Source: a virus. Taken from it: DNA of 64,000 nt. The DNA lies in the IMG/VR virus record IMGVR_UViG_3300046692_000091, positions 143,261 to 207,260 of that record, one strand, 5' to 3'. The notes under the pieces are model-generated. The model saw only the letters and a list, made by a program, of their open reading frames with translations, searched no databases and was not told where the DNA came from. Shown piece by piece: positions 10,898 to 58,637 of the stretch. Made by a program: the position numbers and the translations under genes. Each line of letters begins with the position of its first letter. Position 1 is the first letter of the stretch.

Positions 10898-11832
10898 TTC
10901 GCGTTCGTTATGGTTACAGTCATAGTTCTTCGACGATGCCTGTTGAAATGAAACACATGCCGGGTGGTGAACTCCACCCAACGCTTGACACGGATCACTT
11001 GAATGCCAGCGAGTACACCATCTACGCCGACACCAAGAGCTCGGATGATCTGTTTGGTATTGCTCTGGTAGCTAACGCTATCCGCCGTAATGCCGAAGTA
11101 CCAATCAAAGCACTCTCTCTGGTAATTGGTTATGTGCCTTATGCACGCCAAGACCGTATTGTTGGTGGTGAAGGTGAGGCACTATCGATCGAAGTGATGG
11201 CCGACTTCATCAACATGCTGAACTTCGATGCAGTGATCATTGCAGATCCCCACAGCGATACAACTCCGGCTTTGATCCGTAATGCTAAGGTCATGTCCCA
11301 GGAAATGATCTTCAGTGAATTCCTGATCCGCGAAACGGCAGACTTCGATACCCGTGAGATTGCTTACGTGCCATCTGAGTACATCCTGGTTTCCCCAGAT
11401 GCTGGTGCGATCAAGAAGACCGAGAAGCTGGCTACTAAGTTCGGCTTTAAAGGTGTAGCGTACGCTAACAAAACACGCAATACCCGTACCGGTAAGATCA
11501 CTGGTTGTACTGTGGACCGATTGGTTTTGGATGGTGAACCAGCAATGATAAGTCAACTACAAGGCGAGAAGCTTTTAGTAGTTGACGATATCTGTGATGG
11601 TGGTTATACATTTATCCAATTGGCCGAAGTGTTGAATACCTACAGCCCAGCTAGTTTGGAACTGTACGTCACTCACGGTATCTTCTCTAAAGGTCTCGAG
11701 CCGTTGTATAAAGCGGGTTACACTCGTGTTGTTACTACCAATGCTTATGGCATGGAAGGTAGCACTGAGCTGTATGCGCTTGAGAAAGAAGAAAAGAAAG
11801 CACTCAAATTCGTAAAAATCGATATTGCCTAA
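10894..11832 (+). CDS. ribose-phosphate pyrophosphokinase family protein (Prs-like; alternatively ADPR pyrophosphokinase Adps of the NARP1 pathway)
   Basis: Prs signatures GYVPYARQDR and PRPP-binding loop LLVVDDICDGGYT; 312 aa. Confidence 0.7.
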   Translation: MIRVRYGYSHSSSTMPVEMKHMPGGELHPTLDTDHLNASEYTIYADTKSSDDLFGIALVANAIRRNAEVPIKALSLVIGYVPYARQDRIVGGEGEALSIEVMADFINMLNFDAVIIADPHSDTTPALIRNAKVMSQEMIFSEFLIRETADFDTREIAYVPSEYILVSPDAGAIKKTEKLATKFGFKGVAYANKTRNTRTGKITGCTVDRLVLDGEPAMISQLQGEKLLVVDDICDGGYTFIQLAEVLNTYSPASLELYVTHGIFSKGLEPLYKAGYTRVVTTNAYGMEGSTELYALEKEEKKALKFVKIDIA

Positions 11833-11841
11833 GGATTCAAA

Positions 11842-13656: not shown

Positions 13657-13662
13657 TCGGAC

Positions 13663-13700
13663 GGGGACCTTCGGGTCCCCATCCTATTTTCTTTTTTGTC
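13663..13700 (+). terminator. hairpin + T-rich tract
   Basis: ggggaccttcgggtcccc + atcctattttcttttttg. Confidence 0.6.
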
Positions 13701-13710
13701 GGAGTAAACA

Positions 13711-14325
13711 ATGATCTGCTGTCAAAATTGTAATGTTGATGCTGTTAGTCCTCAGCGTTCAGAAGTAAATGCATCCATCCGCTTTGATGCAACTGATGCC
13801 CCTAATCCAGCATTGATCGGCAAGAATCTCCGCTTGGTTAATGGTACGTTGTTCACTCGTGATGGCGCAATGCCTAAAGGCGGCTTTCGTGTTGAGATGA
13901 TTACTACTGGTGCAAAGCATCGTATCTCGATCTACCGCATGACCTTACCTTTCGATGAGTTGATGCTGATCCTACAATTCGATGAAACGGTTGGTGAAGT
14001 ACAAGTCAGACAGTTCGCAAATGTCGAACCACTGGTACAACTCCATCTGGAGATGACCAAAGAATTCGTGGAAGAAAAACTCTACCAAGAACTAGCACCA
14101 TTGGTATACCGTGTACCTTCACGTGCAGCTATGCTCCAACTCTTCGAGCATCGTAAATTGTCAGGCCGTGTTCTGGAGGCAGCCGAAGTACAAATCCAAA
14201 CCAATAACCGGACAGGTAACTGGCCGATGATGGCAATATTCCATCAGAATCTCCTCGGTGTTGAGACGCGAAATTCTCCTGTTATTAATATTCCTGATTG
14301 GAGAAATAACGCAGCTTGGCAATAA
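13711..14325 (+). CDS. hypothetical protein (204 aa)
   Basis: SD 'ggagtaaacaATG' after terminator. Confidence 0.55.
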   Translation: MICCQNCNVDAVSPQRSEVNASIRFDATDAPNPALIGKNLRLVNGTLFTRDGAMPKGGFRVEMITTGAKHRISIYRMTLPFDELMLILQFDETVGEVQVRQFANVEPLVQLHLEMTKEFVEEKLYQELAPLVYRVPSRAAMLQLFEHRKLSGRVLEAAEVQIQTNNRTGNWPMMAIFHQNLLGVETRNSPVINIPDWRNNAAWQ

Positions 14326-24141: not shown

Positions 24142-24621
24142 ATGCTTAATCCAACTCGCGGTCTTATTCGCAAAACCGTATTTGGCCAAGATATCCGGCC
24201 AATGCAACCACCCATCAACTGCAAGATCGGTAAAGAGTTGGCGGGTTACATGACCAAGGGACTAGTGGATCGTTTCTTGGAATACGGTTACCTGTCCATG
24301 ATCATAAAGCACAGCAAAGAATACACACCAATCTACACTTTCCAAGCGGCGACACATGTTGAGGAAGTGAAGATTCATGTCATGCCTAAGTGCTTCACCA
24401 TCTATCGTGATAAGGTAGATGGCGATGATCGCGGTATCTACTTCGTCACTGTTAAGTTGGATATGCATTTCAACGTAACTGACGTAGAGATCGAATCAAC
24501 AAAAATGGCTTTCATCGATGTAGCTACCGATCTACATCGTGTCTTGACTGGATACATGAACCAGTTCGACACATTCGGCAAAGCAAAGAACCCAACCCCA
24601 CAAGAAAAAATCGACTGCTAA
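24142..24621 (+). CDS. hypothetical protein (159 aa)
   Basis: ORF. Confidence 0.5.
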   Translation: MLNPTRGLIRKTVFGQDIRPMQPPINCKIGKELAGYMTKGLVDRFLEYGYLSMIIKHSKEYTPIYTFQAATHVEEVKIHVMPKCFTIYRDKVDGDDRGIYFVTVKLDMHFNVTDVEIESTKMAFIDVATDLHRVLTGYMNQFDTFGKAKNPTPQEKIDC

Positions 24622-24630: not shown

Positions 24631-25113
24631 ATGAAGATGTCTACTACTGCAAAACGTATTGGCCTGGCGCAACTGGAAGTAGTTGTTAAGGATTTCATTG
24701 GTAGCGGTTACTTGGCTATGTTCACTGCCGCTGCACCTTCGCACACTTTCCGTGTTGCAGAAAACCAGACCTTGGAACTGCGTTATGCAGACTCGGGTAA
24801 AATCAAACGTATTTTTATGGTGTTGACGAATACTCGTTCGACCCGTTCGGAAACTGTGGTATACACAATCCCTCGTGGCGATATCGCCGAGATCAGTGTT
24901 ACCCCAGTTCCAGGTAGTCAACTCCAGAACTACATTAAGCTAGCCATGGAGCTTGCTAATGCAATCGTCGTGGTTCAAGACAGCTGCACTGTAGATGGCG
25001 AACTTCGTGTTAGCTATCCAGGCGGTACTGGTTATTCGGCTATCGATGGTGAAGGCGCAGCTGAAGCATTCGTTCGCATGCGTAACAATGGTAGCCCAGG
25101 AGTTGCAAATTGA
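24631..25113 (+). CDS. hypothetical protein (160 aa)
   Basis: ORF. Confidence 0.55.
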   Translation: MKMSTTAKRIGLAQLEVVVKDFIGSGYLAMFTAAAPSHTFRVAENQTLELRYADSGKIKRIFMVLTNTRSTRSETVVYTIPRGDIAEISVTPVPGSQLQNYIKLAMELANAIVVVQDSCTVDGELRVSYPGGTGYSAIDGEGAAEAFVRMRNNGSPGVAN

Positions 25114-25818: not shown

Positions 25819-26208
25819 ATGAAGTTACTTAAAATCATGCTGGCTACAGTAATCGCATTCGGGGTGGTGTTAAGCCATCCCGTTATGGCGGTTCCTGAAC
25901 CGACCCAAGAGACAGGAATCTCGGCAGAAACATGCACCACAGCTGGTCGTTATATCGCGGACGTACTTCGGATGATACAGGAAGGTCGTACCAATATTGA
26001 GATCATGTCATGGCTCGATAGCGTTACACCCGATGCCAAGGAAAAACCACAGGCTTATCTAGGTGTGGTAATGGTAAAACTAAATGTCGTATCCGCTCGG
26101 GTGGCTTTAACAAAAGCATACAAGCCCAGCGTGATACGGCAAAAACAAATTTCTGATTGCATGACAAAAGATGGCACGCAATTAATGGTTTACGGAAAAA
26201 CACAATGA
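25819..26208 (+). CDS. secreted protein (129 aa)
   Basis: Signal peptide MKLLKIMLATVIAFGVVLSHPVMA. Confidence 0.5.
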   Translation: MKLLKIMLATVIAFGVVLSHPVMAVPEPTQETGISAETCTTAGRYIADVLRMIQEGRTNIEIMSWLDSVTPDAKEKPQAYLGVVMVKLNVVSARVALTKAYKPSVIRQKQISDCMTKDGTQLMVYGKTQ

Positions 26209-26672
26209 AACTGAATGTAATCAACCTGCTCAGCAAAACCTTTGGTGAGCGTTATGTATCGGCTAGTGACCTGTTCCGCAAATCACTGAACACGGTAGCT
26301 ACTCCAGTAATGGGTAGCAAGAAAGCAGTACTGTGGATCATTGTTGACAATGGTCAACGTGGTGAAGATGTTACTCGTCGTCACTATGAAACGATGTTGG
26401 CAGAAGACTCGTTGATCGCAGGTAAAGAAATGCCAATCGATCCGTACGGTGGTCCTCGTGAACTGGCTGTCCGTTTGCTGCAACAAGGTTACGAAATGAA
26501 GTTGACTTTGATTCCACCTGGATTCGAAGATACTGAGCGTTATCTGTCGTTACACCATTCCGCTATGGTTTCCGAACATAAAGACATTCAGGCTGTGTGC
26601 TATAACCTGGATAACCGTGTTATGCCAGAAGCGGACCCTGAACCACTTAAGATTGAAGGAATCAATACATGA
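26205..26672 (+). CDS. hypothetical protein (155 aa)
   Basis: ATGA overlap with upstream gene. Confidence 0.5.
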   Translation: MKLNVINLLSKTFGERYVSASDLFRKSLNTVATPVMGSKKAVLWIIVDNGQRGEDVTRRHYETMLAEDSLIAGKEMPIDPYGGPRELAVRLLQQGYEMKLTLIPPGFEDTERYLSLHHSAMVSEHKDIQAVCYNLDNRVMPEADPEPLKIEGINT

Positions 26673-27112
26673 GAGCTATCCTTGCTACCTTTGCACTGAT
26701 CCTCCTCGTAGTACTGGGTGGCCCTGCTAAAGCACAAGACCAACCCTTCGGTACCTTTGCAGTAGAAAAGCTTACCATCACTCCAGCTGTGTGCATGGAG
26801 GTAGGTGCACTGACTGAACAAGCTGTAGGGCACATGCAAACAGGTTCCAGCGATATGGACCTGATCGGTGACTTGGCTGCAATGGCTCAGCGTGATCTCA
26901 ACAATGATTCACACTATCTGGCAGCAATGATGACCAGTACTGCTATCCCGCATATTCGCACACGGATCAATGCCCCAGAAGTTCTGGCATTGGTTAAGAA
27001 GGTACCGGGTAACACCCGTGTATCCGCAGTTGGCTTGGATATGAAGATCAAATGCTCTAAACTAGAAGGCACAACTTACGACGTGCCAAAACGAATTAAA
27101 GCTAAGGTTTAA
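26669..27112 (+). CDS. secreted protein (147 aa), paralog of 27115-27549
   Basis: Signal peptide MRAILATFALILLVVLGGPAKA; shared LTITPAVC segment. Confidence 0.5.
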   Translation: MRAILATFALILLVVLGGPAKAQDQPFGTFAVEKLTITPAVCMEVGALTEQAVGHMQTGSSDMDLIGDLAAMAQRDLNNDSHYLAAMMTSTAIPHIRTRINAPEVLALVKKVPGNTRVSAVGLDMKIKCSKLEGTTYDVPKRIKAKV

Positions 27113-27763: not shown

Positions 27764-27800
27764 GCGCCGCCCTTCGGGGCGGCTTTGCCTGTTCTTTTTT
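27764..27800 (+). terminator. hairpin + T-rich tract
   Basis: gcgccgcccttcggggcggc + tttgcctgttcttttttg. Confidence 0.6.
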
Positions 27801-27807: not shown

Positions 27808-27837
27808 TACTCGAAAAAATCTGAAATCTATATTACT
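27808..27837 (+). promoter_or_regulatory. promoter-like motif aaaaaatctgaaatCTATATTACtacagtg
   Basis: Near-identical to 7655 copy; follows terminator. Confidence 0.5.
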
Positions 27838-29694: not shown

Positions 29695-29839
29695 AGAAGT
29701 CTTAGCTAGTGTGGCGGGGGGTGCTTTAGTGCAGTCCCGTCATCTACCTGAAACCAAACTTGCGCTGGAACCTACCCAACAGACGGATCGATTGGAACTC
29801 AAACCAAATCCAGAATATCTGGTGGACGTGTACATATGA
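29657..29839 (+). CDS. hypothetical small protein (60 aa)
   Basis: Internal ATG; overlaps previous gene by ~38 nt. Confidence 0.3.
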   Translation: MTKELFPENLSFEEVLASVAGGALVQSRHLPETKLALEPTQQTDRLELKPNPEYLVDVYI

Positions 29840-30114
29840 GCAGCAAACAAATGACCCTGATCCGTGGGGTTATGGTAAACGATCTGTTGGAAATCAATCA
29901 ACAGGTTCAAGATGGTATCGATAGCCAAGAGTTAGGCTTTACCATCGATCAAGCTGTTGCTGTTAAACAAGCAATCCAAGACACTACTGTCGGTGTACTG
30001 CATGTGATCGACAAGCATGCGCAAATCTTTCCTGCTGGTCATGATCTCGGCTCTAATCCTTTCTTTAATGAATCGGAACTAGCCGAAGCTTACATCGAAG
30101 CAATCAACTCTTAA
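29836..30114 (+). CDS. small acidic protein ending ...YIEAINS (INS-tail family)
   Basis: ATGA overlap; C-terminal aromatic-x3-[IV]NS shared with 7 others. Confidence 0.5.
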   Translation: MSSKQMTLIRGVMVNDLLEINQQVQDGIDSQELGFTIDQAVAVKQAIQDTTVGVLHVIDKHAQIFPAGHDLGSNPFFNESELAEAYIEAINS

Positions 30115-30122
30115 GGAACAAC

Positions 30123-30371
30123 ATGGATACCGAAGAACTCGTTGAATCTGTTGCAGAGGCTAATGACCTCAAACAAAAAGAAATTCTGGATGGCATGATC
30201 GGTATTCGTATCGAAGCAGAAGCTATGCCCCAAGTAGAAGGCATTCATCACGCTATCTCTGAAACTGCTCGTCTGTATGAAGGCGCATTCGTTCTGGAAG
30301 TAACTGCCAATGGTTGTGCTACCGAATACATGGGTACCGCAGATCGTTACCTGGAGTACGTTAACTCGTGA
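30123..30371 (+). CDS. small acidic protein ending ...YLEYVNS (INS-tail family)
   Basis: SD 'taaggaacaacATG'. Confidence 0.5.
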   Translation: MDTEELVESVAEANDLKQKEILDGMIGIRIEAEAMPQVEGIHHAISETARLYEGAFVLEVTANGCATEYMGTADRYLEYVNS

Positions 30372-30604
30372 CCCATCTTGTCCCTGATGAGAAAGTCGAT
30401 GCTGCTGCAAAGCTATTCATCGACTGGTCACGCAGTGTAGATGAAGATGAGTTCGAAGCCACCTTCAAAGGTCTTGATGGTATCCTTGATATTCTAGCTA
30501 AGGCGATGATTATCCCATTGGATACTAAAGATCGTCTCACTGCTGCGATTGGCCGTATCAATGAAGAAGAGGAAAAGAAAACCTTCGAAGACTTCTTCAA
30601 ATAA
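30368..30604 (+). CDS. small acidic protein (GTG start), no INS tail
   Basis: GTGA overlap with upstream stop. Confidence 0.4.
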   Translation: MTHLVPDEKVDAAAKLFIDWSRSVDEDEFEATFKGLDGILDILAKAMIIPLDTKDRLTAAIGRINEEEEKKTFEDFFK

Positions 30605-30674
30605 AGAACTACTAATTCCCGTAATACAATGCGTGAATGTTTCGCGCTAATCATTCTCAATAGGAAGCACCGCA

Positions 30675-30908
30675 ATGACTGACAAAATCGTAGAAGCCAA
30701 TGTTGAATCCCGTGATGCCCTGATCAGTATTATCAATGAAGTCCGTAGCACCGCCAATGGCGAAGTCACCATCGCTGCCGCTGTTGATGTTGCAATCACC
30801 GGCACCGTAATTGCTGTTGAACAAGCTGTCCTGTCCGGTGGCATGGGTTCGGTAGTTGACCTGAACGAAGCCCTGGGTAAGAACTGGGCCGAAGCCGTTA
30901 ACTCCTAA
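30675..30908 (+). CDS. small acidic protein ending ...WAEAVNS (INS-tail family)
   Basis: SD 'aggaagcaccgcaATG'. Confidence 0.5.
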   Translation: MTDKIVEANVESRDALISIINEVRSTANGEVTIAAAVDVAITGTVIAVEQAVLSGGMGSVVDLNEALGKNWAEAVNS

Positions 30909-31192
30909 TGGCGCTGTCCCTAATCGACTCAGGGTTGTTCAAGCTGTTGGACCGTGATCGTGACCAACTGGTGTGCGATGAGTTCAAAGATGCACGTGAC
31001 GAGGCCGGTAATCTAACCGTCGCCTCCGTCTCTGCAGCTATGGATAAACTGTACGACAGAACAGTCGGACAAACGTTGTACGCTTTAGATAGCGTAGGCT
31101 TCTTCACGATTGCCGATACTAAAGCTAGAACAATTACAGATATCGTTTCTCAGTCAATGGGCGACGAATGGTTCGCTGCAATCAACTCGTAA
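30908..31192 (+). CDS. small acidic protein ending ...WFAAINS (INS-tail family)
   Basis: taATG overlap. Confidence 0.5.
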   Translation: MALSLIDSGLFKLLDRDRDQLVCDEFKDARDEAGNLTVASVSAAMDKLYDRTVGQTLYALDSVGFFTIADTKARTITDIVSQSMGDEWFAAINS

Positions 31193-31201
31193 GGAAATCC
31201 G

Positions 31202-31549
31202 ATGTTCCCTGTTTACTTCCAAGGTAGTGTAGTTGGTGCCATTCTAGGTATCATCTTGATTCTCTCGTTGGCAACCATTCTGATTCGCAATAAAAGCGAA
31301 GGCATGAAGTGGTTCTCCAACAAATACCGCTGGTTGGTGGCAACCGCTATACTGGTCAGTTGGACTGGTTCGTTCGTCAATATCGGTCTACACCAAGTTG
31401 AAGGTGATCGTGCCCGATTCGATCAAGCTGGTACTCTCACCGAGAAGAACATTCCTAAGGTTACTCGTGACACTCCTTCACCGGAGTCGGCACGTAAAGC
31501 TGCTGACGAATCTCGCAAAGAGATCGACGCCGGTAACCTGAACAAGTAA
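31202..31549 (+). CDS. membrane protein (115 aa)
   Basis: Two TM helices; SD 'taaggaaatccgATG'. Confidence 0.5.
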   Translation: MFPVYFQGSVVGAILGIILILSLATILIRNKSEGMKWFSNKYRWLVATAILVSWTGSFVNIGLHQVEGDRARFDQAGTLTEKNIPKVTRDTPSPESARKAADESRKEIDAGNLNK

Positions 31550-31591
31550 TACCTGGTTACACTCAAACTCGAATTCAAAAGGAAATGCTAC

Positions 31592-32455
31592 ATGAAACTG
31601 CTGTCCGTTATCAAGTCCGCTGCACTCGCCATGATCGCCGTCGTTGCACTGCAAGGCTGCTCGTTCGAAGTCATCCCACCTGCCTTCAAAGGTAAGATTC
31701 TGACTACCTCTGGTTACAACCCAGAGATCCTGGAACCAGGTAAAGAAACTCTGTGGGGTCGTGATGAACTGGTCCTGCTGGAAACCGGTACTCGCACTGT
31801 TGCTGAAACCATCACCGTGAAGATGGATGACAAACTCGATCTGACTTTCGATGTTCGTTTCCGTACTCGCATTGGCGGGGACAAGAAAGTCCTGAACCAA
31901 ATGTTCAATGACATTCAGGTCAAAGAAAAGCGTGTGACACTGCAACAAGTCTACGGTGTGTATGGTCTTGATGTAGTGCAATCGGTATCTCGTTCAGTTG
32001 TTGGCAAATACAAAACCGAAGATGTCGGTGCTAACTTCGATAAGATCACCGCTGATCTGTCTGAACGTCTCGTGAAAGCAATGGTTAATTCCCCCCTGGA
32101 AGTATCGAACGTTACTCTTGGTAATCTGAAGTATCCTAAAGTGATTACTGAAGCGATCGAGAAACAACAAGAGCGTCTGCTGGCTATTGAAACTGAAACC
32201 AACCAGCAAGCCATCGAAACAGTTAAACGTGATAACCAACTGCGGTTGGCACAACTGGATCGCGATATCGAACTGACCAAAGCCAAGACTCTGCGGGATG
32301 CTAACGCCATTACTGCGGATGGTCTGAGCCCGGCACTGCTGCAATACCGTGCTCTGGACGTACAAGAGAAAATGGCTGAGAATGATGCCGCTGTATTCGT
32401 ACCATACGAAGCCTTCGGTACCGCTGGCATGTCTAACCGTATCTTCAACAAGTAA
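31592..32455 (+). CDS. SPFH/band-7 (HflC/K-like) domain lipoprotein
   Basis: Lipobox MKLLSVIKSAALAMIAVVALQGC; long Ala/Glu/Gln-rich coiled-coil typical of SPFH proteins. Confidence 0.55.
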   Translation: MKLLSVIKSAALAMIAVVALQGCSFEVIPPAFKGKILTTSGYNPEILEPGKETLWGRDELVLLETGTRTVAETITVKMDDKLDLTFDVRFRTRIGGDKKVLNQMFNDIQVKEKRVTLQQVYGVYGLDVVQSVSRSVVGKYKTEDVGANFDKITADLSERLVKAMVNSPLEVSNVTLGNLKYPKVITEAIEKQQERLLAIETETNQQAIETVKRDNQLRLAQLDRDIELTKAKTLRDANAITADGLSPALLQYRALDVQEKMAENDAAVFVPYEAFGTAGMSNRIFNK

Positions 32456-32471
32456 CACTGTCTAACGGACT

Positions 32472-32510
32472 GCCTCCCTTCGGGGAGGCTTTCTGTCATT
32501 TCTTTTTTGT
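32472..32510 (+). terminator. hairpin + T-rich tract
   Basis: gcctcccttcggggaggc + tttctgtcatttcttttttg. Confidence 0.6.
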
Positions 32511-32519
32511 GAGGTTACG

Positions 32520-32798
32520 ATGACTCAATTCGACGAATCTTTCCAGGCAATCGAACGAAACATCTCAGGTGGTAGTTACGCCCGGAATAATCCTTGCCCA
32601 GTCTCTCAAGCTTTCGCTAATGGCTTGGAAGAAGGAGCACGTCATGGTGTACGGGTAACGCTGGATATCCTGGAGCTCCATGGGCATCTAGAAAATGAAG
32701 AAGCTGGTAAAGTATCCATCCAGAACCAATGGGATGATTGGTACCACACCATGCTTGACGAACATGTCGATGTAATTAACGGAGTACCCACAGAATGA
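32520..32798 (+). CDS. hypothetical protein (92 aa)
   Basis: SD 'gaggttacgATG' after terminator. Confidence 0.45.
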   Translation: MTQFDESFQAIERNISGGSYARNNPCPVSQAFANGLEEGARHGVRVTLDILELHGHLENEEAGKVSIQNQWDDWYHTMLDEHVDVINGVPTE

Positions 32799-33052
32799 CC
32801 CCTGTACCATCTGATTTCTTTCGTGGTCTAGTAGAACACATTGCCCATAACACCAAGCAGCATGATGCGATTGATCTCGCCTTGGTCCATTCTGGAGCAG
32901 CAATGACACTGGACTACTTTGCACTGCAGACAATTCGTGCAGAGCCAGACGGCTCGCATATAAACGCAATGGCTATGTCTGATTGTTTCCGGGAGCATGC
33001 CGAACTGTTCTATGCTGATCCTGAACAACAGCAAGCAAAAAAAGACGCATAG
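32795..33052 (+). CDS. hypothetical protein (85 aa)
   Basis: ATGA overlap. Confidence 0.45.
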   Translation: MTPVPSDFFRGLVEHIAHNTKQHDAIDLALVHSGAAMTLDYFALQTIRAEPDGSHINAMAMSDCFREHAELFYADPEQQQAKKDA

Positions 33053-33089
33053 GCATTCCCTATGTATTAACTCCATTCGGAACACCAAA

Positions 33090-33197
33090 ATGAAACACCG
33101 CATCATAGCCTTCTTCTATGAATACCGTAACCCATTGGGGTTAGCGCTCGTAGGTGGGCTATACATCGCTTTCGTAAATCTCTCTGGCCTCAGTTGA
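33090..33197 (+). CDS. small membrane peptide (35 aa)
   Basis: MKHRIIAFFYEYRNPLGLALVGGLYIAFVNLSGLS. Confidence 0.3.
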   Translation: MKHRIIAFFYEYRNPLGLALVGGLYIAFVNLSGLS

Positions 33198-33213
33198 CAA
33201 AAGGAAAACTGCA

Positions 33214-33672
33214 ATGTCTCCCGCTCTTGTTCTCTCCCTCGCTGCTATTGTAATCGTTCTACTCGTTGCCTACTATGCGTGGGTTGGTCTTATCAATGCT
33301 ACCGGTGGTGGCTTGAAAGAGTGGGTAGATGCAGACTTTCCTGATATCGTGCATACGCCGAAAGCGACATGGTTGACTGGGTTTAAATATCGCCAACATG
33401 GCTTGTCTGTTAAAGCTAAATTGGATGTGCCGATCTGTCTAGAATATGATCAGCATGTACATCTTGGTCGGTTCTCTGTGGTTGACACCTTTGCACGTTC
33501 CGCCAGTTCATTAGACGGGGTTGATCAGAACCATGAAAAGGATCTGGTTGCCTATGACTTTGGTATGGATCTGGAACTCATGACTGGTGGTCAAATCGCT
33601 ATGCGCGTAGTCTATAACCGCATCAGTATTACCGACATCGAACCAGTCATCAAGGAGTCTGCCTGTGAGTGA
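33214..33672 (+). CDS. membrane-anchored protein (152 aa)
   Basis: N-terminal TM LVLSLAAIVIVLLVAYYAWVGL; SD 'aaaggaaaactgcaATG'. Confidence 0.5.
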   Translation: MSPALVLSLAAIVIVLLVAYYAWVGLINATGGGLKEWVDADFPDIVHTPKATWLTGFKYRQHGLSVKAKLDVPICLEYDQHVHLGRFSVVDTFARSASSLDGVDQNHEKDLVAYDFGMDLELMTGGQIAMRVVYNRISITDIEPVIKESACE

Positions 33673-34018
33673 GTACCCAAAGGCAACCAAGGCCGAGCTT
33701 GAAAAAGCATATGCCTTGGTTAATGAATTAGAGAAAGAACTCGTAGCCGATTCACAAATGGCACGTGGAATTTGGTTTGCTGATATTCAAGCGAACGTCC
33801 TAGATCAGAACCCCCCAAAGTTTGACAAAGGGTCAACGATGACCCAAGCTTTCCGCATGGGGATTGATCGTGGTGTGGAATGTGTATTGAGCGCAGTCGA
33901 TTCTCGGGGCATCCTGATGATCGATGGCAATGATCGAATGCTCAACGTAGACATCACTAGCGATGGTCCGGATATGTTACCCCTGGTAGATCTGTGGACT
34001 ACCTACATTAATAGCTGA
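33665..34018 (+). CDS. protein ending ...WTTYINS (INS-tail family)
   Basis: GTGA overlap; C-terminal INS. Confidence 0.5.
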   Translation: MSEYPKATKAELEKAYALVNELEKELVADSQMARGIWFADIQANVLDQNPPKFDKGSTMTQAFRMGIDRGVECVLSAVDSRGILMIDGNDRMLNVDITSDGPDMLPLVDLWTTYINS

Positions 34019-34025
34019 GGTCTCG

Positions 34026-34361
34026 ATGTATCAAACCACCAATGATGAACGTTGGGCAAAAGCCACGACTCGTGTTATCACTGATGCTGAGATGAATAAT
34101 GCCAGTATCCGTATTGGTCAGAACATGATGTTCCAAGGGCTCAATCAGGACCTTAAGGAATTGAATCAGCTGGTCGATATGGACGAGGATAAAATCAAGT
34201 GTGTCCAGCTAGGTATGTGCATGGTTTTCAATTACATTGAAGACGCTCAGTTAGAACTGATCAGTAAAGAAGATCAGGGTTCACTGAATCCTACTCATGA
34301 ATCACATGACTATCATCTTGGTTTTGCATGGGATAGTTACATCGCTTCTATTAATAGCTAG
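34026..34361 (+). CDS. protein ending ...YIASINS (INS-tail family)
   Basis: SD 'tgaggtctcgATG'. Confidence 0.5.
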   Translation: MYQTTNDERWAKATTRVITDAEMNNASIRIGQNMMFQGLNQDLKELNQLVDMDEDKIKCVQLGMCMVFNYIEDAQLELISKEDQGSLNPTHESHDYHLGFAWDSYIASINS

Positions 34362-34423
34362 GCTCTGTATGATCTTATGTATCTATGTTTGTAGATATCA
34401 TCCTGATCACTAAGGAGTCTTAA

Positions 34424-34963
34424 ATGGCTATTCTGAAGAAAATTGAAGCTGTTGCTGCACGTGTAGCACAGGACATCACCCCACTGGAACTGTTCATCAA
34501 TGAACACCTGACTACTCAGCGTGTAATTGATTACATCAGCAATACCCAGATCGATAACCCGTCCATCCGTGTTAACATTGATGGCGCTACCCTGACCACT
34601 CCAGCCGTCGCTGCTCTGAAGGCTTCCATTGAAGCTGCAGAATGGAAAGACGTTGAAGTCATCCAGGAAGCTAAACGTGTAGTCGTTGCTTTCTCGGTTA
34701 AACCAAAGGTTGACGTTTACGTCGCCACCGTTAGCCCTGCTTCTCCATCGGTAGCTGTTGCTGGCACCGTACAACTTGTCGTTACTGTAACTAAGAACGG
34801 CGAAGCGTATAGCGCTACTCCTACCTATACCTCTGGTACTCCAGCTAAAGCCACCGTTGCATCTAACGGTCTGGTTACTGGTGTTGCCGTTGGTACTTCG
34901 GTTATCACCATTGCTGAAGCTGGCAAGTACAGCGTCACCAAGACTGTTACCGTTACTGCTTAA
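34424..34963 (+). CDS. bacterial Ig-like (Big_2) domain protein
   Basis: C-terminal VAVAGTVQLVVTVTKNGEAY...LVTGVAVGTSVITIAEAGKYSVTKTVTVTA; SD 'taaggagtcttaaATG'. Confidence 0.55.
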   Translation: MAILKKIEAVAARVAQDITPLELFINEHLTTQRVIDYISNTQIDNPSIRVNIDGATLTTPAVAALKASIEAAEWKDVEVIQEAKRVVVAFSVKPKVDVYVATVSPASPSVAVAGTVQLVVTVTKNGEAYSATPTYTSGTPAKATVASNGLVTGVAVGTSVITIAEAGKYSVTKTVTVTA

Positions 34964-34969
34964 TATATC

Positions 34970-35002
34970 GCCTATCCTTCGGGATAGGCTTTATGTTGTT
35001 TT
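34970..35002 (+). terminator. hairpin + CTTTATG; exact 33-nt repeat of 48805-48837
   Basis: gcctatccttcgggataggctttatgttgttt. Confidence 0.55.
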
Positions 35003-35007
35003 CTTTT

Positions 35008-35037
35008 ATTCAAACTTTTTAAACGCCTATATTACAT
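35008..35037 (+). promoter_or_regulatory. promoter-like motif actttttaaacgcCTATATTAC
   Basis: Same layout as 21717 copy. Confidence 0.5.
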
Positions 35038-35069
35038 TCTTGGATTCACTAACTATAGGAAAAGGCCCG

Positions 35070-35453
35070 ATGACTAGTGTAAAGACCGATCGCGAACGCG
35101 TAGAAAAACTGTCAATGTTCAGCATAGATCTCACCCAGAAGATCCGTTCACTAATCGATGTCTTAGGACCATACGCACCTCTGGCACAAGCGTTGTCCGA
35201 ATACCCTGATGCCTTAATCGTAAAAGCACAAGTAAAATTGCGTGGCTCAAGTAATAGTCTCTATCAGGTCTCTATCCTAGATAGTGGTCAACTGCAAGAA
35301 GTGTTCGTCACCGACAATGACGTATCTCGCTATATTGCACTCCGCTTTAACAAAGCGGTATTTGGTACGAGCGACATATTCGATCGTGCCTCAATCTCCG
35401 TTGATGGTGTGACTATTGATCCTGAATCTCAGGGTCTAGCCGACATCGACTGA
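35070..35453 (+). CDS. hypothetical protein (127 aa)
   Basis: SD 'aggaaaaggcccgATG' downstream of promoter motif. Confidence 0.45.
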   Translation: MTSVKTDRERVEKLSMFSIDLTQKIRSLIDVLGPYAPLAQALSEYPDALIVKAQVKLRGSSNSLYQVSILDSGQLQEVFVTDNDVSRYIALRFNKAVFGTSDIFDRASISVDGVTIDPESQGLADID

Positions 35454-35457
35454 GAAC

Positions 35458-35490
35458 AGTAACCCTTCGGGGTTACATATTTTTCTTTGT
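35458..35490 (+). terminator. hairpin + T-rich tract
   Basis: gtaacccttcggggttac + atatttttctttg. Confidence 0.55.
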
Positions 35491-35511
35491 GTGTTTTAAG
35501 GAATTTGCAGT

Positions 35512-35946
35512 ATGACAGTTGCACCAGAAATGGTTCCATTCGTTTATTGCGGTGGTACGTTAGCTGTATTCATCATAGGTACATTACTGTTCTTACTTAT
35601 CCGCGGCATGATGGATCAGCGTGAGAATGAAAAGCCCGGCGAAAACAAACGTACTCGTTACATGATGCGTTTCGTTTATGATGCAGTTAACGTTAGGAGA
35701 ATCGGCTATTACTCTACGAATACGATGAAGCCTTATATACAGGCGTATCCAAAGTATGCGGCGGTAATAACTGGTTATCCGGCGGCGAAGTCTGTGTTTG
35801 ATGACCATGCTAAACTAAGCCTTGGTCAAGTCAAAGAACAATTTGCTTATCTGTACCCTACGTGCCGAATCTATCTAATGGAAGAACGCACTTACTTCGG
35901 TATTAAATCCTGGTATGACCTAACGAGCGTGGATCTGGTCCCATGA
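35512..35946 (+). CDS. membrane protein (144 aa)
   Basis: N-terminal TM VYCGGTLAVFIIGTLLFLLI. Confidence 0.5.
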   Translation: MTVAPEMVPFVYCGGTLAVFIIGTLLFLLIRGMMDQRENEKPGENKRTRYMMRFVYDAVNVRRIGYYSTNTMKPYIQAYPKYAAVITGYPAAKSVFDDHAKLSLGQVKEQFAYLYPTCRIYLMEERTYFGIKSWYDLTSVDLVP

Positions 35947-36239
35947 GTGAATATGTAATCGAAATCATCCGTGGTCGTGATCACATTTATCTGTCTCGTA
36001 AAGAGAGCGGTAAAGCCAATGTCACACCGCAAGAACGCAACGCTATTACTTTTGAATCATCAACTGCAGCTAAGCTAGTGATTGATGCATTGATGGAAAA
36101 GCCCACCTCAGACATGCGTAAGCTGTTGAAGGTTCAAGAAGACTGGAATCGTCCAGTCCAACTGTTGGCCCGTAAGCGGTTGGGTAATAGTCACATGACT
36201 ACCAACGCCCGTATGTATCTATTTAAGGAAGCCGCATAA
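35943..36239 (+). CDS. hypothetical protein (98 aa); ends FKEAA
   Basis: ATGA overlap. Confidence 0.5.
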   Translation: MSEYVIEIIRGRDHIYLSRKESGKANVTPQERNAITFESSTAAKLVIDALMEKPTSDMRKLLKVQEDWNRPVQLLARKRLGNSHMTTNARMYLFKEAA

Positions 36240-36376
36240 TGTGGAAATTTACTTCGTTTGATGGACTCGTTTGGCGCACCCCTAAACAAATGAATCTGGT
36301 CGCCGCTGTCGCTCAGTGGACAATTTCCACTGGTCTTGGCGAAGCAGATATCAAAGAAATCATTAACATCCACTAA
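36239..36376 (+). CDS. small protein (45 aa), not in ORF track
   Basis: taATG overlap; fills gap before 36389. Confidence 0.3.
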   Translation: MWKFTSFDGLVWRTPKQMNLVAAVAQWTISTGLGEADIKEIINIH

Positions 36377-36388
36377 AAGGAATTAGTC

Positions 36389-37072
36389 ATGATCGAGATT
36401 AAAGTTAAGCCACAACATGGTAAAGGTCCTGGTATCAACATTCACGGTAAACACGTGACTGAATCGGTACACCAGATCTTCTCTCGTGTAATGCGTGCTA
36501 ATCACATGGACAGTCCTTACTACAAGGCCCGTCAAAAGTGTTCTGCATTCTTCCAAGGTGGGCATGATGCACCGAAAGGTGAATGGCTATTCATCGAGTT
36601 CTGGGGTAGTGATTACCTGGACTTCGTACAGATCATCCGTAAGCTAGTTAACTATCTCGATAATGAGGGTAATCCGCTACCGATTACCTACAGCTTCCCT
36701 GAAGAACAACGGGAGCGTGCGGATAACATCCATCACGATACATTGCGTGGTAAGTATCAGAACAATGCTGACGGCACGAAGACACTGTTCCCTGTAGATG
36801 GGGATGATGTAATCGATCTGATCTGGCACATCGAACACGAAGGCTTCGTAATCCATCGTACAGAGATCCATGTTGATCCTTACGAGTGGGAAGAGAAAGG
36901 TGCGCTGGGTGTATTCCAGATGATCACTGAGGACACTACTGTTCCTTACATCTGGTTGCTCGGTGAGAACCTACGCTTCCTACCGACCGACGAAGAACAG
37001 AAACGGGCTGTCATGGATCTGTTGGGAGAATTCAAAATCGCCTACACGTTGAAGAAATATCCGAATGTCTAA
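36389..37072 (+). CDS. hypothetical protein (227 aa)
   Basis: SD 'aaaggaattagtcATG'. Confidence 0.55.
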   Translation: MIEIKVKPQHGKGPGINIHGKHVTESVHQIFSRVMRANHMDSPYYKARQKCSAFFQGGHDAPKGEWLFIEFWGSDYLDFVQIIRKLVNYLDNEGNPLPITYSFPEEQRERADNIHHDTLRGKYQNNADGTKTLFPVDGDDVIDLIWHIEHEGFVIHRTEIHVDPYEWEEKGALGVFQMITEDTTVPYIWLLGENLRFLPTDEEQKRAVMDLLGEFKIAYTLKKYPNV

Positions 37073-37367
37073 ATCTTTGACATGGGAACTCGAATGGATT
37101 GATAACAATCCAGATCGATACGAAGGCCCTTGGCATCAGGCAGCGGTGAAACGGTTCATCACTGCCCGCTATCTACGGAATGCGCTGATCAAAAAGGATG
37201 TGTCCTATACAGGTGATCCTGAGAAGCGTTACAAGTACTTGGGAACTTCCAAAGGGGCGGGCACTAGTAAAGGAGAGATCCTAGAAGTTTACTGGTGCTT
37301 CGTTGACAACCAACTGTATCACCGTACTCCCGGTGATTTCCGTGATCGAATTCAGGATAGCCGATGA
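37065..37367 (+). CDS. hypothetical protein (100 aa)
   Basis: ORF. Confidence 0.5.
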   Translation: MSKSLTWELEWIDNNPDRYEGPWHQAAVKRFITARYLRNALIKKDVSYTGDPEKRYKYLGTSKGAGTSKGEILEVYWCFVDNQLYHRTPGDFRDRIQDSR

Positions 37368-37588
37368 GAGAACTTGCTGATGGCGTGTATGACACGTGTC
37401 CACTACATGGACCGAAAGTCTACATGCCTGACCGTTTAGTGCGCGTCACTGACAACTGTGTATCGTTTGTGATTGATGACATTGTTATACCCGATCCCAA
37501 ACCGAGTGGCTTTCCATTCCGTTTCTCCGTTGCTGACTTTTTCAGCGTAAACGTACTCTTTAACAAAGAAAAGAATAAGGTTGCATAA
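37364..37588 (+). CDS. hypothetical protein (74 aa)
   Basis: ATGA overlap. Confidence 0.45.
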   Translation: MRELADGVYDTCPLHGPKVYMPDRLVRVTDNCVSFVIDDIVIPDPKPSGFPFRFSVADFFSVNVLFNKEKNKVA

Positions 37589-37590
37589 GA

Positions 37591-38298
37591 ATGACTAATT
37601 GCGTTATCTACACCGACACCCCTTCTCGCGACGTGGTTCCTTATCGTGTCTACCTGCAAGAAGCTGGTTCGATGGGTATGGCAGATTGGTATCAAGGTAC
37701 CATGGGAAAGCTGAATACGTTGGACTCCCGTTGCTTGGTATTCCCTAATGCAAAAGAAGCTGAGGATTTTGCTCGGATCTTTGCTAATATACATAGTCGG
37801 TTTGGTGGTTGCCAGACCGTTGGTTATCATGGTGTTACTGAAAACGGTAACGCCTGTCCCCCATTCAAGATCGTTAAACATGGTGATCAAGAAATGGGCT
37901 GGACTCCTGAAAAACATGAGGCCTGGCTTAAGCGTAATGCGGCTTGGAATGAAATGCTTATACCGGCACTGATTAGTCGTGACAGCGTAACTGTTGCACG
38001 TGAGGGTGATGTCACCCCAGAAGAACTGCTTAACCGTATTACCTACCTGACTAATAACCTGGTAGAAGAAGAACTCGATGAAGTTCTTGGTAACATCCAG
38101 AACATGGAACGCTTGGAATTCAAGTGCACCGATATCGATACATATCCTGAATCCGTAACGATTCATTATACTCGTAAACTTCCAGCCTTCGAACCCTACC
38201 ATTGCTCGATGACCGTTTGCTCGTTGAATCTCTATGATGACAAAGGCATCAAGCAGTTGAAAGATCTGGCTGCACGTCGAGAACTTGCGGATGCGTGA
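37591..38298 (+). CDS. hypothetical protein (235 aa)
   Basis: ORF. Confidence 0.55.
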   Translation: MTNCVIYTDTPSRDVVPYRVYLQEAGSMGMADWYQGTMGKLNTLDSRCLVFPNAKEAEDFARIFANIHSRFGGCQTVGYHGVTENGNACPPFKIVKHGDQEMGWTPEKHEAWLKRNAAWNEMLIPALISRDSVTVAREGDVTPEELLNRITYLTNNLVEEELDEVLGNIQNMERLEFKCTDIDTYPESVTIHYTRKLPAFEPYHCSMTVCSLNLYDDKGIKQLKDLAARRELADA

Positions 38299-38731
38299 AC
38301 AAACCGATATGCGTCGGTACAGTGTGTCGCAGCAATACAAGTTCTATGAGCTCGACAAAGATACCACGATGGCTAATATCGCCTTAGGCTTGACCTGTTC
38401 ATACAGCGACATGCTTCTGGTCTTCCCGGATGATCTATCCTGGGATACTTGCCAGTACGATGGTTTCGGTGGCTACGGTATATTCGAAGTTTCAGTATGC
38501 GTGAAGAATGACTCATACTGGAACAAGCAAGGCCCATTCATATACCGTGGTGCACATGTCGTTTTCTTTGGCGGTTCTATCGAAAAGATCCAGGCACAAG
38601 CAGAGAAATGGTTTCTCACTAACCGGGATCTGAAGAACGAACTATATACTCATCGCTATGGTCGTAAAGTTACGCCGGTGCTTTTATCACTACGTTGCTA
38701 CGAACCATATGTACCCAAGATAAAAGAGTAG
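38285..38731 (+). CDS. hypothetical protein (148 aa)
   Basis: ORF. Confidence 0.5.
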   Translation: MRMREQTDMRRYSVSQQYKFYELDKDTTMANIALGLTCSYSDMLLVFPDDLSWDTCQYDGFGGYGIFEVSVCVKNDSYWNKQGPFIYRGAHVVFFGGSIEKIQAQAEKWFLTNRDLKNELYTHRYGRKVTPVLLSLRCYEPYVPKIKE

Positions 38732-38736
38732 AAAAG

Positions 38737-39018
38737 ATGAGCGTTAAGTTGATCAAGCGTGACAATGTGTGGGTTACTGAATTCTTAGGGAAAGAGCGGC
38801 ACTTCATCATTGATACTGATTTGGTGACTTGGCGCTCACTCGGTGTACACCCATCTGGTGCAGTCGAGTTCCAGATTGATCTGGATGGTAGTTTGGAAAA
38901 CGTACGCAGTATTTTTACTGGAGAAGACATTACGGAATTGGACATTCCTCGTGGCCATTCAGTTGCTGGAATGATTAAAGCAACAAAACCGTACGTACAT
39001 AGGGGGAATCATGTTTGA
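38737..39018 (+). CDS. hypothetical protein (93 aa)
   Basis: Internal ATG after upstream stop. Confidence 0.45.
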   Translation: MSVKLIKRDNVWVTEFLGKERHFIIDTDLVTWRSLGVHPSGAVEFQIDLDGSLENVRSIFTGEDITELDIPRGHSVAGMIKATKPYVHRGNHV

Positions 39019-39421
39019 TGTAACTGCAATAAATCTGGTCTTACTTTTCCTGGTGATCGCTGGTCTGATTTGGTGGTTGATCCGCTGGGTAGCGAAACCG
39101 GTAGCTATGCTTCAGTTCACCGGTGTAGAACTGATCACGCAATACGGCACACAACGCGTTATAGAGCATTCTAAGCTGCGTTCGGATGATGGTGATAAAC
39201 CACTAGTCTCTGGACTGAATGACTTCTATATCACCGTTCAGGATGGTGTATTACGGTACCATAACCCTGGCGAAGCTCATCTACTTAACCCAATCCTACG
39301 AAGCTCTGAGGAGATCCTATTCTTCAGACTGCAAATTCGTGTGGTCGGTGAACGAATTGTAAAGTTCGAGCAGACCAATCTTTCCAAACCGAACGCTACA
39401 TTGCTGTGGAGCAAAGCGTAA
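39011..39421 (+). CDS. membrane-anchored protein (136 aa)
   Basis: N-terminal TM AINLVLLFLVIAGLIWWLI. Confidence 0.5.
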   Translation: MFDVTAINLVLLFLVIAGLIWWLIRWVAKPVAMLQFTGVELITQYGTQRVIEHSKLRSDDGDKPLVSGLNDFYITVQDGVLRYHNPGEAHLLNPILRSSEEILFFRLQIRVVGERIVKFEQTNLSKPNATLLWSKA

Positions 39422-39517
39422 GGAGGTAAACCATGCTATATAGCGAAGTTGGTTTCCTTACAAGTATCCTAGTGGTACTCGGTATTATGGTATCTTCAAC
39501 TCTCCTAAGGAATACAA

Positions 39518-39979
39518 ATGTCAGAGTCACTCAATGCTGGTCAGTTCCCCGTACTACATCGCAGTAGTAATGGTGCGCTCTTCGTGCAGCATCAACAATC
39601 TTTGCCTCAGCGAGTAACCTTGCCTAGCGGTGATGTTGTTGAAACTGGTTTCGTAAAAGTCACTGGCGTCGATGCCATTGATCTGTATGCCCTGTGCCAA
39701 AACAATGGCCGTAGTAAATCCCTGTCGATTAAAGCGATCGTTTATATTGACGAAGGCGATAACTTGAAGGTGCATGATGTTAAACGTATGGCTCCGGCTT
39801 TACTGAGCGATCCAGCTTATGTCACTAAAGGCAAAGCTAAAATCGAGATCGGCCATGTAACTAAACTGTGTGGATTGCGCTGGGGTTTCAATCTCCAGCT
39901 TGACCCTGCAACCGGTAAGTGTACCATCGAAGTGGACCGGGAATCCCCGATCGTTGGTTTGAAGTTGCAGTTCGATTAA
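39518..39979 (+). CDS. hypothetical protein (153 aa)
   Basis: SD 'ctaaggaatacaaATG'; terminator follows. Confidence 0.5.
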   Translation: MSESLNAGQFPVLHRSSNGALFVQHQQSLPQRVTLPSGDVVETGFVKVTGVDAIDLYALCQNNGRSKSLSIKAIVYIDEGDNLKVHDVKRMAPALLSDPAYVTKGKAKIEIGHVTKLCGLRWGFNLQLDPATGKCTIEVDRESPIVGLKLQFD

Positions 39980-39982
39980 ACG

Positions 39983-40009
39983 GGGTCCCTTCGGGGACTC
40001 CTTTATGTT
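39983..40009 (+). terminator. hairpin + CTTTATG
   Basis: ggggtcccttcggggactcctttatg. Confidence 0.55.
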
Positions 40010-40036
40010 GCAAAAAATTATAACCCTATATTACCA
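40008..40036 (+). promoter_or_regulatory. promoter-like motif aaaattataacCCTATATTAC
   Basis: Follows terminator at 39983. Confidence 0.5.
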
Positions 40037-40098
40037 TTTGGTGTAGGGAAATCGTATCCATGACCAATCCTGGTGTTTGACTAGTAAGGCAACAAAGA

Positions 40099-40383
40099 AT
40101 GCTAAGCTCGCTCTTCAATCTGACCATCCGTAGTCTCGCAGCATCCAAAGTAGAACCAGGTATGGTATTAACCGCAGCACGAGATATATTCGTGACCATT
40201 CTCGATAGACGTGGGGCACACCACGATATCTTGTTTGCGAACGAAGGGGATCAGGTCCGAGTTGAAGGATCTGATAGTCACCGTCCTGGTGATTTGTTCG
40301 TATGCTCCAACGTCGACAACTTTGATGAAGTCGGCTCAGTAAATCCACATGACCTCGAAGACGCCTTTAATGAGTACAAATAA
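40099..40383 (+). CDS. hypothetical protein (94 aa)
   Basis: Downstream of promoter motif; SD 'taaggcaacaaagaATG'. Confidence 0.45.
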   Translation: MLSSLFNLTIRSLAASKVEPGMVLTAARDIFVTILDRRGAHHDILFANEGDQVRVEGSDSHRPGDLFVCSNVDNFDEVGSVNPHDLEDAFNEYK

Positions 40384-40724
40384 TGCAATTTGATAATCTC
40401 TACGAATACATCGACCAAACTTACGATGTTCAGCTCGATAAAGCGTTCCTTAAAAAAGAAGCTCCGTCGCTGACATACCTGAAACTGGTCCGAGTTCTTT
40501 CGGTGTTAAAGATTGATCCGACTGGTCAATCGGCAGAAGCTTTGTTCGCCGATGCTGTCCGTCAGGAACGCAGCGCGTTCACACCACATCAATACAGCCT
40601 CGTGCAGAACCTACTCACGCTGGCCGATCTCCATGAGATCATTGAAACCCTTATTCGCAAATCAGGAAAGAAAACAAATGCTCCTTTCGACAACGGTCAG
40701 TTCGCCGACGATATTAATAGCTAA
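40383..40724 (+). CDS. protein ending ...FADDINS (INS-tail family)
   Basis: taATG overlap; C-terminal INS. Confidence 0.5.
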   Translation: MQFDNLYEYIDQTYDVQLDKAFLKKEAPSLTYLKLVRVLSVLKIDPTGQSAEALFADAVRQERSAFTPHQYSLVQNLLTLADLHEIIETLIRKSGKKTNAPFDNGQFADDINS

Positions 40725-58335: not shown

Positions 58336-58411
<76 letters not shown>

Positions 58412-58416
58412 TAATT

Positions 58417-58505
58417 TGGCGGAAGCATAGAGATTCGAACTCTAGGGGCTGTTACACCCGACGGTTTTCAAGACCGTTGCCTTAAGCCATCTCGGCCATG
58501 CTTCC
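58417..58505 (-). tRNA. tRNA-Ser (anticodon TGA), type II long variable arm
   Basis: RC = GGAAGCATGGCCGAGATGGCTTAAGGCAACGGTCTTGAAAACCGT...TAGAGTTCGAATCTCTATGCTTCCGCCA. Confidence 0.85.
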
Positions 58506-58520
58506 TGTGTTGCTTTTGTA

Positions 58521-58606
58521 TGGTGCGGACAGAGAGACTCGAACTCTCACGCCCTAAGGGCGCTGGAACCTAAATCCAGTGCGTCTACCAATTCCGCCAT
58601 GTCCGC
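58521..58606 (-). tRNA. tRNA-Leu (anticodon TAG), type II
   Basis: RC = GCGGACATGGCGGAATTGGTAGACGCACTGGATTTAGGTTCCAG...GAGAGTTCGAGTCTCTCTGTCCGCACCA. Confidence 0.85.
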
Positions 58607-58636
58607 TGTATATTATTACACACCAAGTATTTTTTT
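58607..58636 (-). promoter_or_regulatory. minus-strand promoter-like motif immediately upstream of tRNA-Leu(TAG)
   Basis: RC = aaAATACTTGgtgtgtaataaTATACa followed directly by the tRNA 5' end GCGGACA. Confidence 0.5.
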
Positions 58637-58637
58637 A

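Follow-up and report, generated by a model that had tools for sequence, protein, structure and literature searches.

A clade-restricted family of small acidic phage proteins with a sharp C-terminal signature

In the phages phiKZ and 201phi2-1, inner-body and head proteins form paralog families, whose duplicates are clustered, belong to one clade, are nearly unrecognisable in pairwise comparison and have no homologs elsewhere. The WXG100/ESX substrates of type VII secretion are helical, acidic proteins of about 100 amino acids (aa) that are encoded by tandem genes, and their C-terminal YxxxD/E is read by an ATPase as an export signal. In bacteriophage T4, a capsid targeting sequence is present at the N-terminus of virion proteins and is cleaved by the prohead protease. 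Here we describe a group of small phage proteins that shares features with each of these systems. They are encoded in a stretch of 64,000 nt of viral DNA (positions 143,261 to 207,260 of IMG/VR virus record IMGVR_UViG_3300046692_000091; the whole stretch is called the window), and seven of them (T1 to T7) end with the motif [FWY]x3[IV]NS, which we call the INS tail. The seven genes and two neighbours without the canonical tail are as follows (positions refer to the window, pI is the isoelectric point):

29836..30114, + strand: T1, 92 aa, pI 4.3, ends ..LAEAYIEAINS
30123..30371, + strand: T2, 82 aa, pI 4.2, ends ..ADRYLEYVNS, best conserved of the members
30368..30604, + strand: T8, 78 aa, acidic, tail-less, ends ..AAIGRINEEEEKKTFEDFFK, sits between T2 and T3
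30675..30908, + strand: T3, 77 aa, ends ..NWAEAVNS, its stop codon overlaps the start of T4 (TAATG)
30908..31192, + strand: T4, 94 aa, ends ..DEWFAAINS
32520..32798, + strand: relative, 92 aa, with a degenerate, extended tail ..HVDVINGVPTE
33665..34018, + strand: T5, 117 aa, ends ..DLWTTYINS
34026..34361, + strand: T6, 111 aa, ends ..DSYIASINS
40383..40724, + strand: T7, 113 aa, pI 5.0, ends ..NGQFADDINS

Like the paralog families of phiKZ and 201phi2-1, the INS proteins are clustered, clade-restricted and highly diverged. They are, however, small and acidic, are encoded in early-type operons and are not annotated as virion components. What marks them is the invariant extreme C-terminus, while the phiKZ/201phi2-1 families are marked by a protease cleavage motif. 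With the WXG100/ESX substrates they have in common that they are small, acidic and helical, are encoded in tandem and carry an aromatic-based C-terminal motif. This is an analogy only: scans of all members against Pfam and PHROGs gave no match (none in Pfam at E ≤ 1), the turn of T2 (residues 34-36) contains no WxG, the T2 model is a three-helix bundle and not a hairpin dimer, and the tail motif is different as well. To our knowledge, Pseudomonas has no type VII secretion system. The C-terminal signals PTS1 (-SKL), ssrA (-LAA) and Hsp70/90 (-EEVD) also place few invariant residues at a free C-terminus. These tags occur on proteins of unrelated fold, with the residues needed by their receptors at the very end, whereas the carriers of the INS tail are mostly homologous, their conservation extends over an amphipathic helix of 11 residues and their last residue is Ser or Thr. 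The canonical tails all end with S or T (46/46), yet relatives of the family end with ..VING or ..VINGVPTE. The capsid targeting sequence of phage T4 is likewise a short terminal peptide common to small phage proteins, but the INS tail is C-terminal and is present on no virion-annotated protein of the related phage Psa21. In the nuclear import of chimalliviruses, cargo is recognised via surface residues of the folded protein and not by a terminal signal (PMC12908238). This PicA/Imp1-dependent import is known from the same virus type as Psa21, whose enzymes expected to be nuclear lack the INS tail.

Sequence profiles of PDB entries gave no match to the family, and when Pfam, PHROGs, PDB sequences and the folds in PDB and BFVD were searched, the sole significant match was the Psa21 ortholog in BFVD. 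The original prediction, made from the sequence of the window, had not recognised the motif from described systems, and this agrees with our searches. The INS family matches no described family or system; the INS-tail proteins form a gene family that has not been described before, is limited to one clade and has an unusually sharp signature at the C-terminus.

The tail motif and its conservation

A C-terminus fitting [FWY]x3[IV]NS is present on exactly 7 of the 461 six-frame open reading frames (ORFs) of at least 40 aa in the window, all of them on the + strand, and these are the seven ORFs with the endings quoted in the original prediction. The ORFs of the window that end with NS are the same seven, and every one fits the longer motif, for which no internal occurrence was found across 19,776 residues. 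When tails were drawn from the own composition of each protein, 0.005 matches were expected per window (P about 2e-20 for seven). A chance origin of the tail is ruled out by this number. One look-alike, the ORF ending at position 26672 (+ strand) with ..KIEGINT, was itself taken as chance, since it has no aromatic residue at −7 and its D6 ortholog ends with ..DGINE. All seven proteins are acidic, with pI values of 4.09-5.03, as had been noticed before for most of them. The tandem run of four described at 29836-31192 holds for the four tailed genes, but it is interrupted by a fifth, tail-less gene (T8).

As stated in the original prediction, the codons for the terminal residues vary. Ser is encoded by TCT, TCG, TCC, TCG and three times by AGC, Asn by AAC in four tails and by AAT in three, and Ile/Val by ATC, GTT, GTT, ATC and three times by ATT. 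The start of the next gene lies at very different positions relative to the tail, from overlap up to more than 60 nt away.

To place the window, we compared it to known phages by megablast. It matched the Pseudomonas phages D6 and Psa21 with 76-82% identity in patches, and a shorter match was obtained to RVTF4; the genomes of all three phages have a size of 302-307 kb. Two contigs, one from JGI (314,814 bp) and one from Logan (80,651 bp), encode proteins identical to those of the window. Because its relative Psa21 carries the PhuZ tubulin and a nuclear shell protein, the source phage is, as judged from sequence, a nucleus-forming chimallivirus, either from the genus Tepukevirus or closely related to it. 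The relatives that we compared were D6 (L001), Psa21, the JGI contigs L009 and L010 (311-317 kb) and RVTF4 (L011). The whole genome of Psa21 was assembled from seven stretches, and all its ORFs were scanned for the tail.

Orthologs of T1-T5 and T7 that have kept the tail are present in the syntenic regions of D6, Psa21, L009, L010 and RVTF4. The T1 orthologs of Psa21 and RVTF4 end with INT. T6 is missing from D6 and is present in two copies in Psa21 (gp351 ends with INT, gp352 with INS), and L009 has an additional T4 paralog at 6639-6896. The T3 ortholog of Psa21 has 93 aa, those of D6, L009 and L010 have 203-225 aa. In these long orthologs (L001 18711-19337, L009 6028-6639, L010 6483-7160) the module with the tail is joined to an additional N-terminal domain (about 125 aa), in which the stretch AVISDVVQEAIIDTA.. 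resembles the central helix of the family. In the T7 orthologs of six genomes the tail is preceded by a G/S/K/N/D-rich linker that is variable in length and sequence.

Among 46 distinct tails from the six genomes, Asn is invariant (46/46), and the last residue is Ser in 42 cases and Thr in 4. Their consensus is [L/M/A]-A-[D/E]-x-[W/Y/F]-[A/I/V/L]-x-x-[I/V]-N-[S/T]-COOH. The last three residues show a conservation of 0.67-1.00, compared to 0.27-0.71 for the body of the protein, and this holds for every ortholog group. The Ser codon of T5 is AGC in five genomes and TCG in RVTF4, while the final codon of T6 is AGC, AGT, ACC (Thr) or TCC among the orthologs. Codons thus switch between TCN and AGY (and ACN for Thr) within ortholog groups, and therefore selection acts on the amino acid and not on the DNA. 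This strengthens the earlier view, based on the variable Ser and Asn codons, that conservation is at the level of the protein and not of a DNA site.

In Psa21, the genes gp339 (INT), gp340, gp342, gp343 (INT), gp346, gp350, gp351, gp352 and gp367 end with [IV]N[ST], and looser matches are found in gp251 and gp276. All tail carriers of Psa21 are hypothetical proteins of 91-140 aa, with genes at 208-271 kb of the genome on the + strand. The whole-genome scan of this phage revealed no annotated polymerase, helicase, ligase or recombinase with the tail, and no annotated structural or internal head protein of the virion that ends with [IV]N[ST], the annotations being made by homology. These results speak against the proposals that the tail is a general signal for nuclear import or for packaging into the virion, for packaging within the limits of such annotations.

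The family is confined to a single clade of phages. In word-indexed searches of 5.8 billion proteins, every homolog came from RVTF4 or from a contig of about 310-318 kb. An exhaustive HMMER search with the family profile against 1.84 billion representatives gave 11 matches, all from this clade; 10 of the 11 have the canonical tail, and the remaining match is the 32520-32798 protein of the window itself, a sequence included in the query. With T2 as query, tblastn against 50,697 phage records hit RVTF4, D6 and Psa21 only, and T2 orthologs found three contigs of the same clade in IMG/VR. No counterpart of the region was seen in phiKZ, which has a handful of genes versus about 45 kb of small genes in this clade. 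Upstream of the window, no member of the Psa21 gp276 type was present in the 9 kb recovered from the Logan contig.

Relatedness beyond the tail

Plain BLASTP among the seven proteins gave weak matches, with a best E value of 0.003 in a database of eight sequences. For more sensitive tests the last 8 residues were removed, and 2187 ORFs (at least 50 aa) from five genomes were used as background. An iterative search with a hidden Markov model (HMM) started from T5 grew from 5 to 11 sequences of the 2187 ORFs. All the additions (the gp346 type, T6, gp351 and gp352) bear the tail, although it had been trimmed. We also compared 8 family groups by hhalign, with 24 ortholog groups of small proteins from the neighbourhood as controls. 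Scores above 20 were reached by 5 of 28 pairs within the family versus 8 of 468 other pairs, and the linked groups formed the clusters {T5, T6, gp346} and {T1, T2, T3}.

A profile of the family from which one group at a time was left out, again without tails, placed T1-T6, gp276 and gp346 all among the best 5% when about 2150 ORFs were ranked. The median ranks of the held-out groups were 5 (T1), 44 (T2), 23 (T3), 26 (T4), 3 (T5), 4 (T6), 6 (gp276) and 52 (gp346). The held-out members of T1 ranked 1-9 of about 2150 ORFs and those of T4 6-101 of about 2155. The family also differs in charge from its surroundings, with a median pI of 4.32 compared to 6.95 in the 24 neighbouring conserved small proteins (Mann-Whitney p = 3e-4).

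Two genes without the canonical tail were also retrieved by the tail-trimmed family profile. The 32520-32798 protein and its L009 ortholog took ranks 1-2 among the non-training ORFs (about 2150), and this protein has a T5-type central helix SQAFANGLEEGARHGVRVTLDILE. Orthologs of the T8 type ranked 3, 5, 43 and 45 of about 2150, and hhalign of T8 and T5 with trimmed tails gave an E value of 0.002; we tentatively count T8 as a family member on the basis of these profile matches. Both types keep [IV]-N, followed by a G end or an extension (..HVDVING, the end of the ortholog P0016, ..HVDVINGVPTE and ..IGRINEEEEKKTFEDFFK).

From these profile comparisons we conclude that T1-T6 and several of their neighbours are diverged paralogs of one family. 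Since T1-T6 share bodies by profile, size, strong acidity and gene neighbourhood, the tail would have been inherited within this family. The seven proteins had been described as otherwise dissimilar, and this is correct for plain pairwise comparison and for T7, but not for T1-T6 when profiles without tails are compared. The view of a tag on diverse cargo is not supported, as six of the seven carriers are still related by profile after removal of the tail.

Duplication appears to be frequent in this region, because further diverged paralog pairs were found among the neighbouring small genes, namely 24142-24621 / 24631-25113 and 25819-26208 / 26669-27112 (hhalign E values of 4e-5 and 7e-5).

The predicted structure of T2 has a pLDDT (predicted local distance difference test) value of 81 and is a three-helix bundle, of which about 75 of the 82 residues can be aligned with other three-helix bundles. 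The last helix carries the motif and is packed confidently into the fold (pLDDT 84-87 for the tail helix). The full motif can be read as an amphipathic helix of three turns, with a hydrophobic stripe at positions −11/−10, −7/−6 and −3, followed by the invariant Asn and a small hydroxyl residue. By extension of the T2 model, the other members may adopt a three-helix fold as well. Mimicry of the phage cytoskeleton or shell was rejected, as the tail has no resemblance to the C-termini of PhuZ and chimallin.

Transcription units and neighbouring genes

The early-promoter core of phiKZ, TATATTAC, was described in PMC7058600 (Table 2). The window contains 7 copies of this motif, all on the + strand, versus an expectation of 2.05 for both strands together. 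An extended, A/T-rich upstream context and a downstream ..GTG/..TTG are common to all seven copies, and three of them are located directly downstream of terminator-like hairpins. The elements around the INS genes are:

3077, 7675, 21738, 27829, 35028, 40027 and 51328, + strand: copies of TATATTAC found by motif scan
27776-27795: terminator-like hairpin just 5' of the putative promoter core at 27829
27829..27836, + strand: putative early-promoter core TATATTAC, heads the T1-T4 unit, 3' of hairpin 27776-27795
32472..32489, + strand: terminator-like hairpin, closes the T1-T4 / SPFH unit
34970..34989, + strand: terminator-like hairpin, closes the unit of the 32520-32798 gene, T5, T6 and a Big_2 protein
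39982-40001: terminator-like hairpin, precedes the putative promoter core at 40027
40027..40034, + strand: putative early-promoter core TATATTAC, heads the T7 unit, after hairpin 39982-40001

The unit starting from 27829 comprises T1-T4, an ORF with two transmembrane segments and an SPFH/Band_7 protein, and ends at hairpin 32472-32489. No exact TATATTAC was found upstream of the T5/T6 unit (32520-34963). By analogy to phiKZ the copies of TATATTAC may function as promoters, and the family genes would then be expressed early.

In the middle of the family cluster, a pair of genes is kept in all relatives. The first (31202-31549, + strand) encodes 115 aa with two hydrophobic segments and precedes the gene for the SPFH/Band_7 protein (31592-32455, + strand), which has a signal peptide and a lipobox-like LQGC. 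A protein of 460 aa (9172-10554, + strand) consists of BCS1_N and an AAA ATPase domain, though it is annotated as 'cell division protein FtsH' in Psa21 and D6. Bcs1 is a mitochondrial translocase of a folded protein. Homologs of this BCS1-like ATPase are encoded by phiKZ (as gp286) and found in over 170 phage records, mostly of jumbo phages, and it was rejected as a clade-specific receptor of the tail because it also occurs in these phages without the family.

Adjacent genes for a ribose-phosphate pyrophosphokinase and a nicotinamide phosphoribosyltransferase are located at 10894-13656 (+ strand), a pair which we take to be of the NAD-salvage kind that phages use against NAD-depleting defences. 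On the − strand, seven tRNA genes (Thr, Ser, two Leu, Trp and two Asn) are found at 58336-63814 among genes of the HNH endonuclease type, as in Psa21. An example of accessory gene flux is seen in the 317 kb contig L009, where a gene resembling those for CCA-adding enzymes (PolyA_pol and HD, 12937-14169) lies between genes that adjoin in the window.

A second recurrent tail occurs in the window: ten proteins from the + strand end with ..AA, and seven of them with ..[K/E/V]EAA. The corresponding gene ends are:

4377, 10554, 10897, 13656, 16078, 20045 and 36239 (also 6201, 20443 and 20715), + strand: gene ends with ..AA tails

The DNA at these tails reads (A/G)AG GA(A/G) GCN GCA TGA/TAA, and several of them overlap the ATG of the next gene. 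The tail is not conserved in Psa21. As judged from the DNA, it appears to be an artefact of a Shine-Dalgarno sequence and a coupled start in the last codons.

Possible roles of the tail and significance

We consider it probable that the tail is the inherited signature of a clade-specific, expanded family of acidic early proteins, and that its C-terminal amphipathic helix is a docking element. According to this model, one lineage-specific family of small (77-120 aa), strongly acidic and all-helical proteins would have expanded in tandem. Since the genes are located in operons with early-promoter motifs of the phiKZ type, their products are probably made early, during host takeover. The tail helix would dock into a helical groove, and this groove may be provided by the own N-terminal hairpin of the protein (as in the T2 model), by a common partner or by a sister paralog, while the variable bodies would provide differing specificities. 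A function of the family in host takeover or against host defences may be expected under this model.

Several of our results weigh against this explanation. A terminus that serves structure only would not usually have its last two residues invariant. A usable structural model was obtained for one member (T2) only; the AF2 model of T5, built from 6 sequences, has a pLDDT of 52 and is not usable. The individual E values of the profile comparisons are weak (0.002-0.08), and the case is carried by the enrichment of ranks over controls. In the sequence comparisons, common descent is not demonstrated for all seven proteins, T7 being the exception: its held-out members ranked 93-787 of 2154 ORFs, so that its body is not detectably related to those of T1-T6. 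T7 would be either a member that has diverged past detection or an unrelated protein bearing the same tail.

It is conceivable, though in our view unlikely, that the tail is a purely intramolecular element with no role in recognition, in which the aromatic residue and Ile/Val belong to the core of the third helix and Asn-Ser forms its C-cap. The T2 model is consistent with such a role. Within a fold, however, constraint is normally lowest at the chain ends, and here it is highest at the end. In addition, T7 keeps the tail behind a variable and apparently flexible linker, without a shared body.

The same feature of T7 can be read in another way, since sharing of the tail alone, after a variable low-complexity linker, is typical for linear motifs. 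The last 7-11 residues could be a portable C-terminal short linear motif that is read in trans by one phage or host receptor, and T7, in this case unrelated to the others, would have acquired it. Recognition could lead to sorting to the phage nucleus, the nuclear shell, the early infection vesicle, the membrane or the virion, or to timed degradation by a protease or adaptor. The terminal N and S/T are invariant despite the switches in codon class, and the fusion of the T3 module to an extra N-terminal domain in D6, L009 and L010 suggests that the module can carry other sequence. We nevertheless regard a portable tag as improbable. The bodies of T1-T6 are homologous, and the carriers are mostly similar in size and acidity. 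All carriers in Psa21 are small hypothetical proteins, and none of them is a virion protein or an enzyme of replication or transcription. Relatives extend past [IV]-N or end with G (..VINGVPTE, ..VING), which argues that a free S-COOH is not always needed, and the T2 model packs the tail helix into the fold. The known import of chimalliviruses also works without terminal signals (PMC12908238).

A DNA- or RNA-level signal in the last codons (ribosome-binding site, coupled start or terminator), by which the ..EAA tails of the window appear to arise from a Shine-Dalgarno sequence and the overlapping next ATG, is refuted by the degeneracy of the INS codons (ATC/ATT/GTT, AAC/AAT, TCN/AGC), the varying distance to the next start and the conservation of the tail in six genomes, and together with chance, at 0.005 expected tails, we give it practically no weight.

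In nucleus-forming jumbo phages, most genes lack an assigned function, and about ten of them in one genome are here reduced to one family. The family comes with a handle that can be mutated, transplanted or used as bait, namely its C-terminal helix of 11 residues, in which Asn is invariant and the last residue is Ser/Thr. If the tail is purely structural, this is an ordinary clade-specific gene family. If it is a signal for sorting or degradation, this would contradict the current view that these phages use no terminal signals, and if it is read in trans, no system that recognises a terminal peptide would have been described before in a phage of the nucleus-forming type. The phage group in question is used for biocontrol of Pseudomonas syringae. 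If the tail docks on one partner, a single pull-down could reveal what an entire set of early proteins targets.

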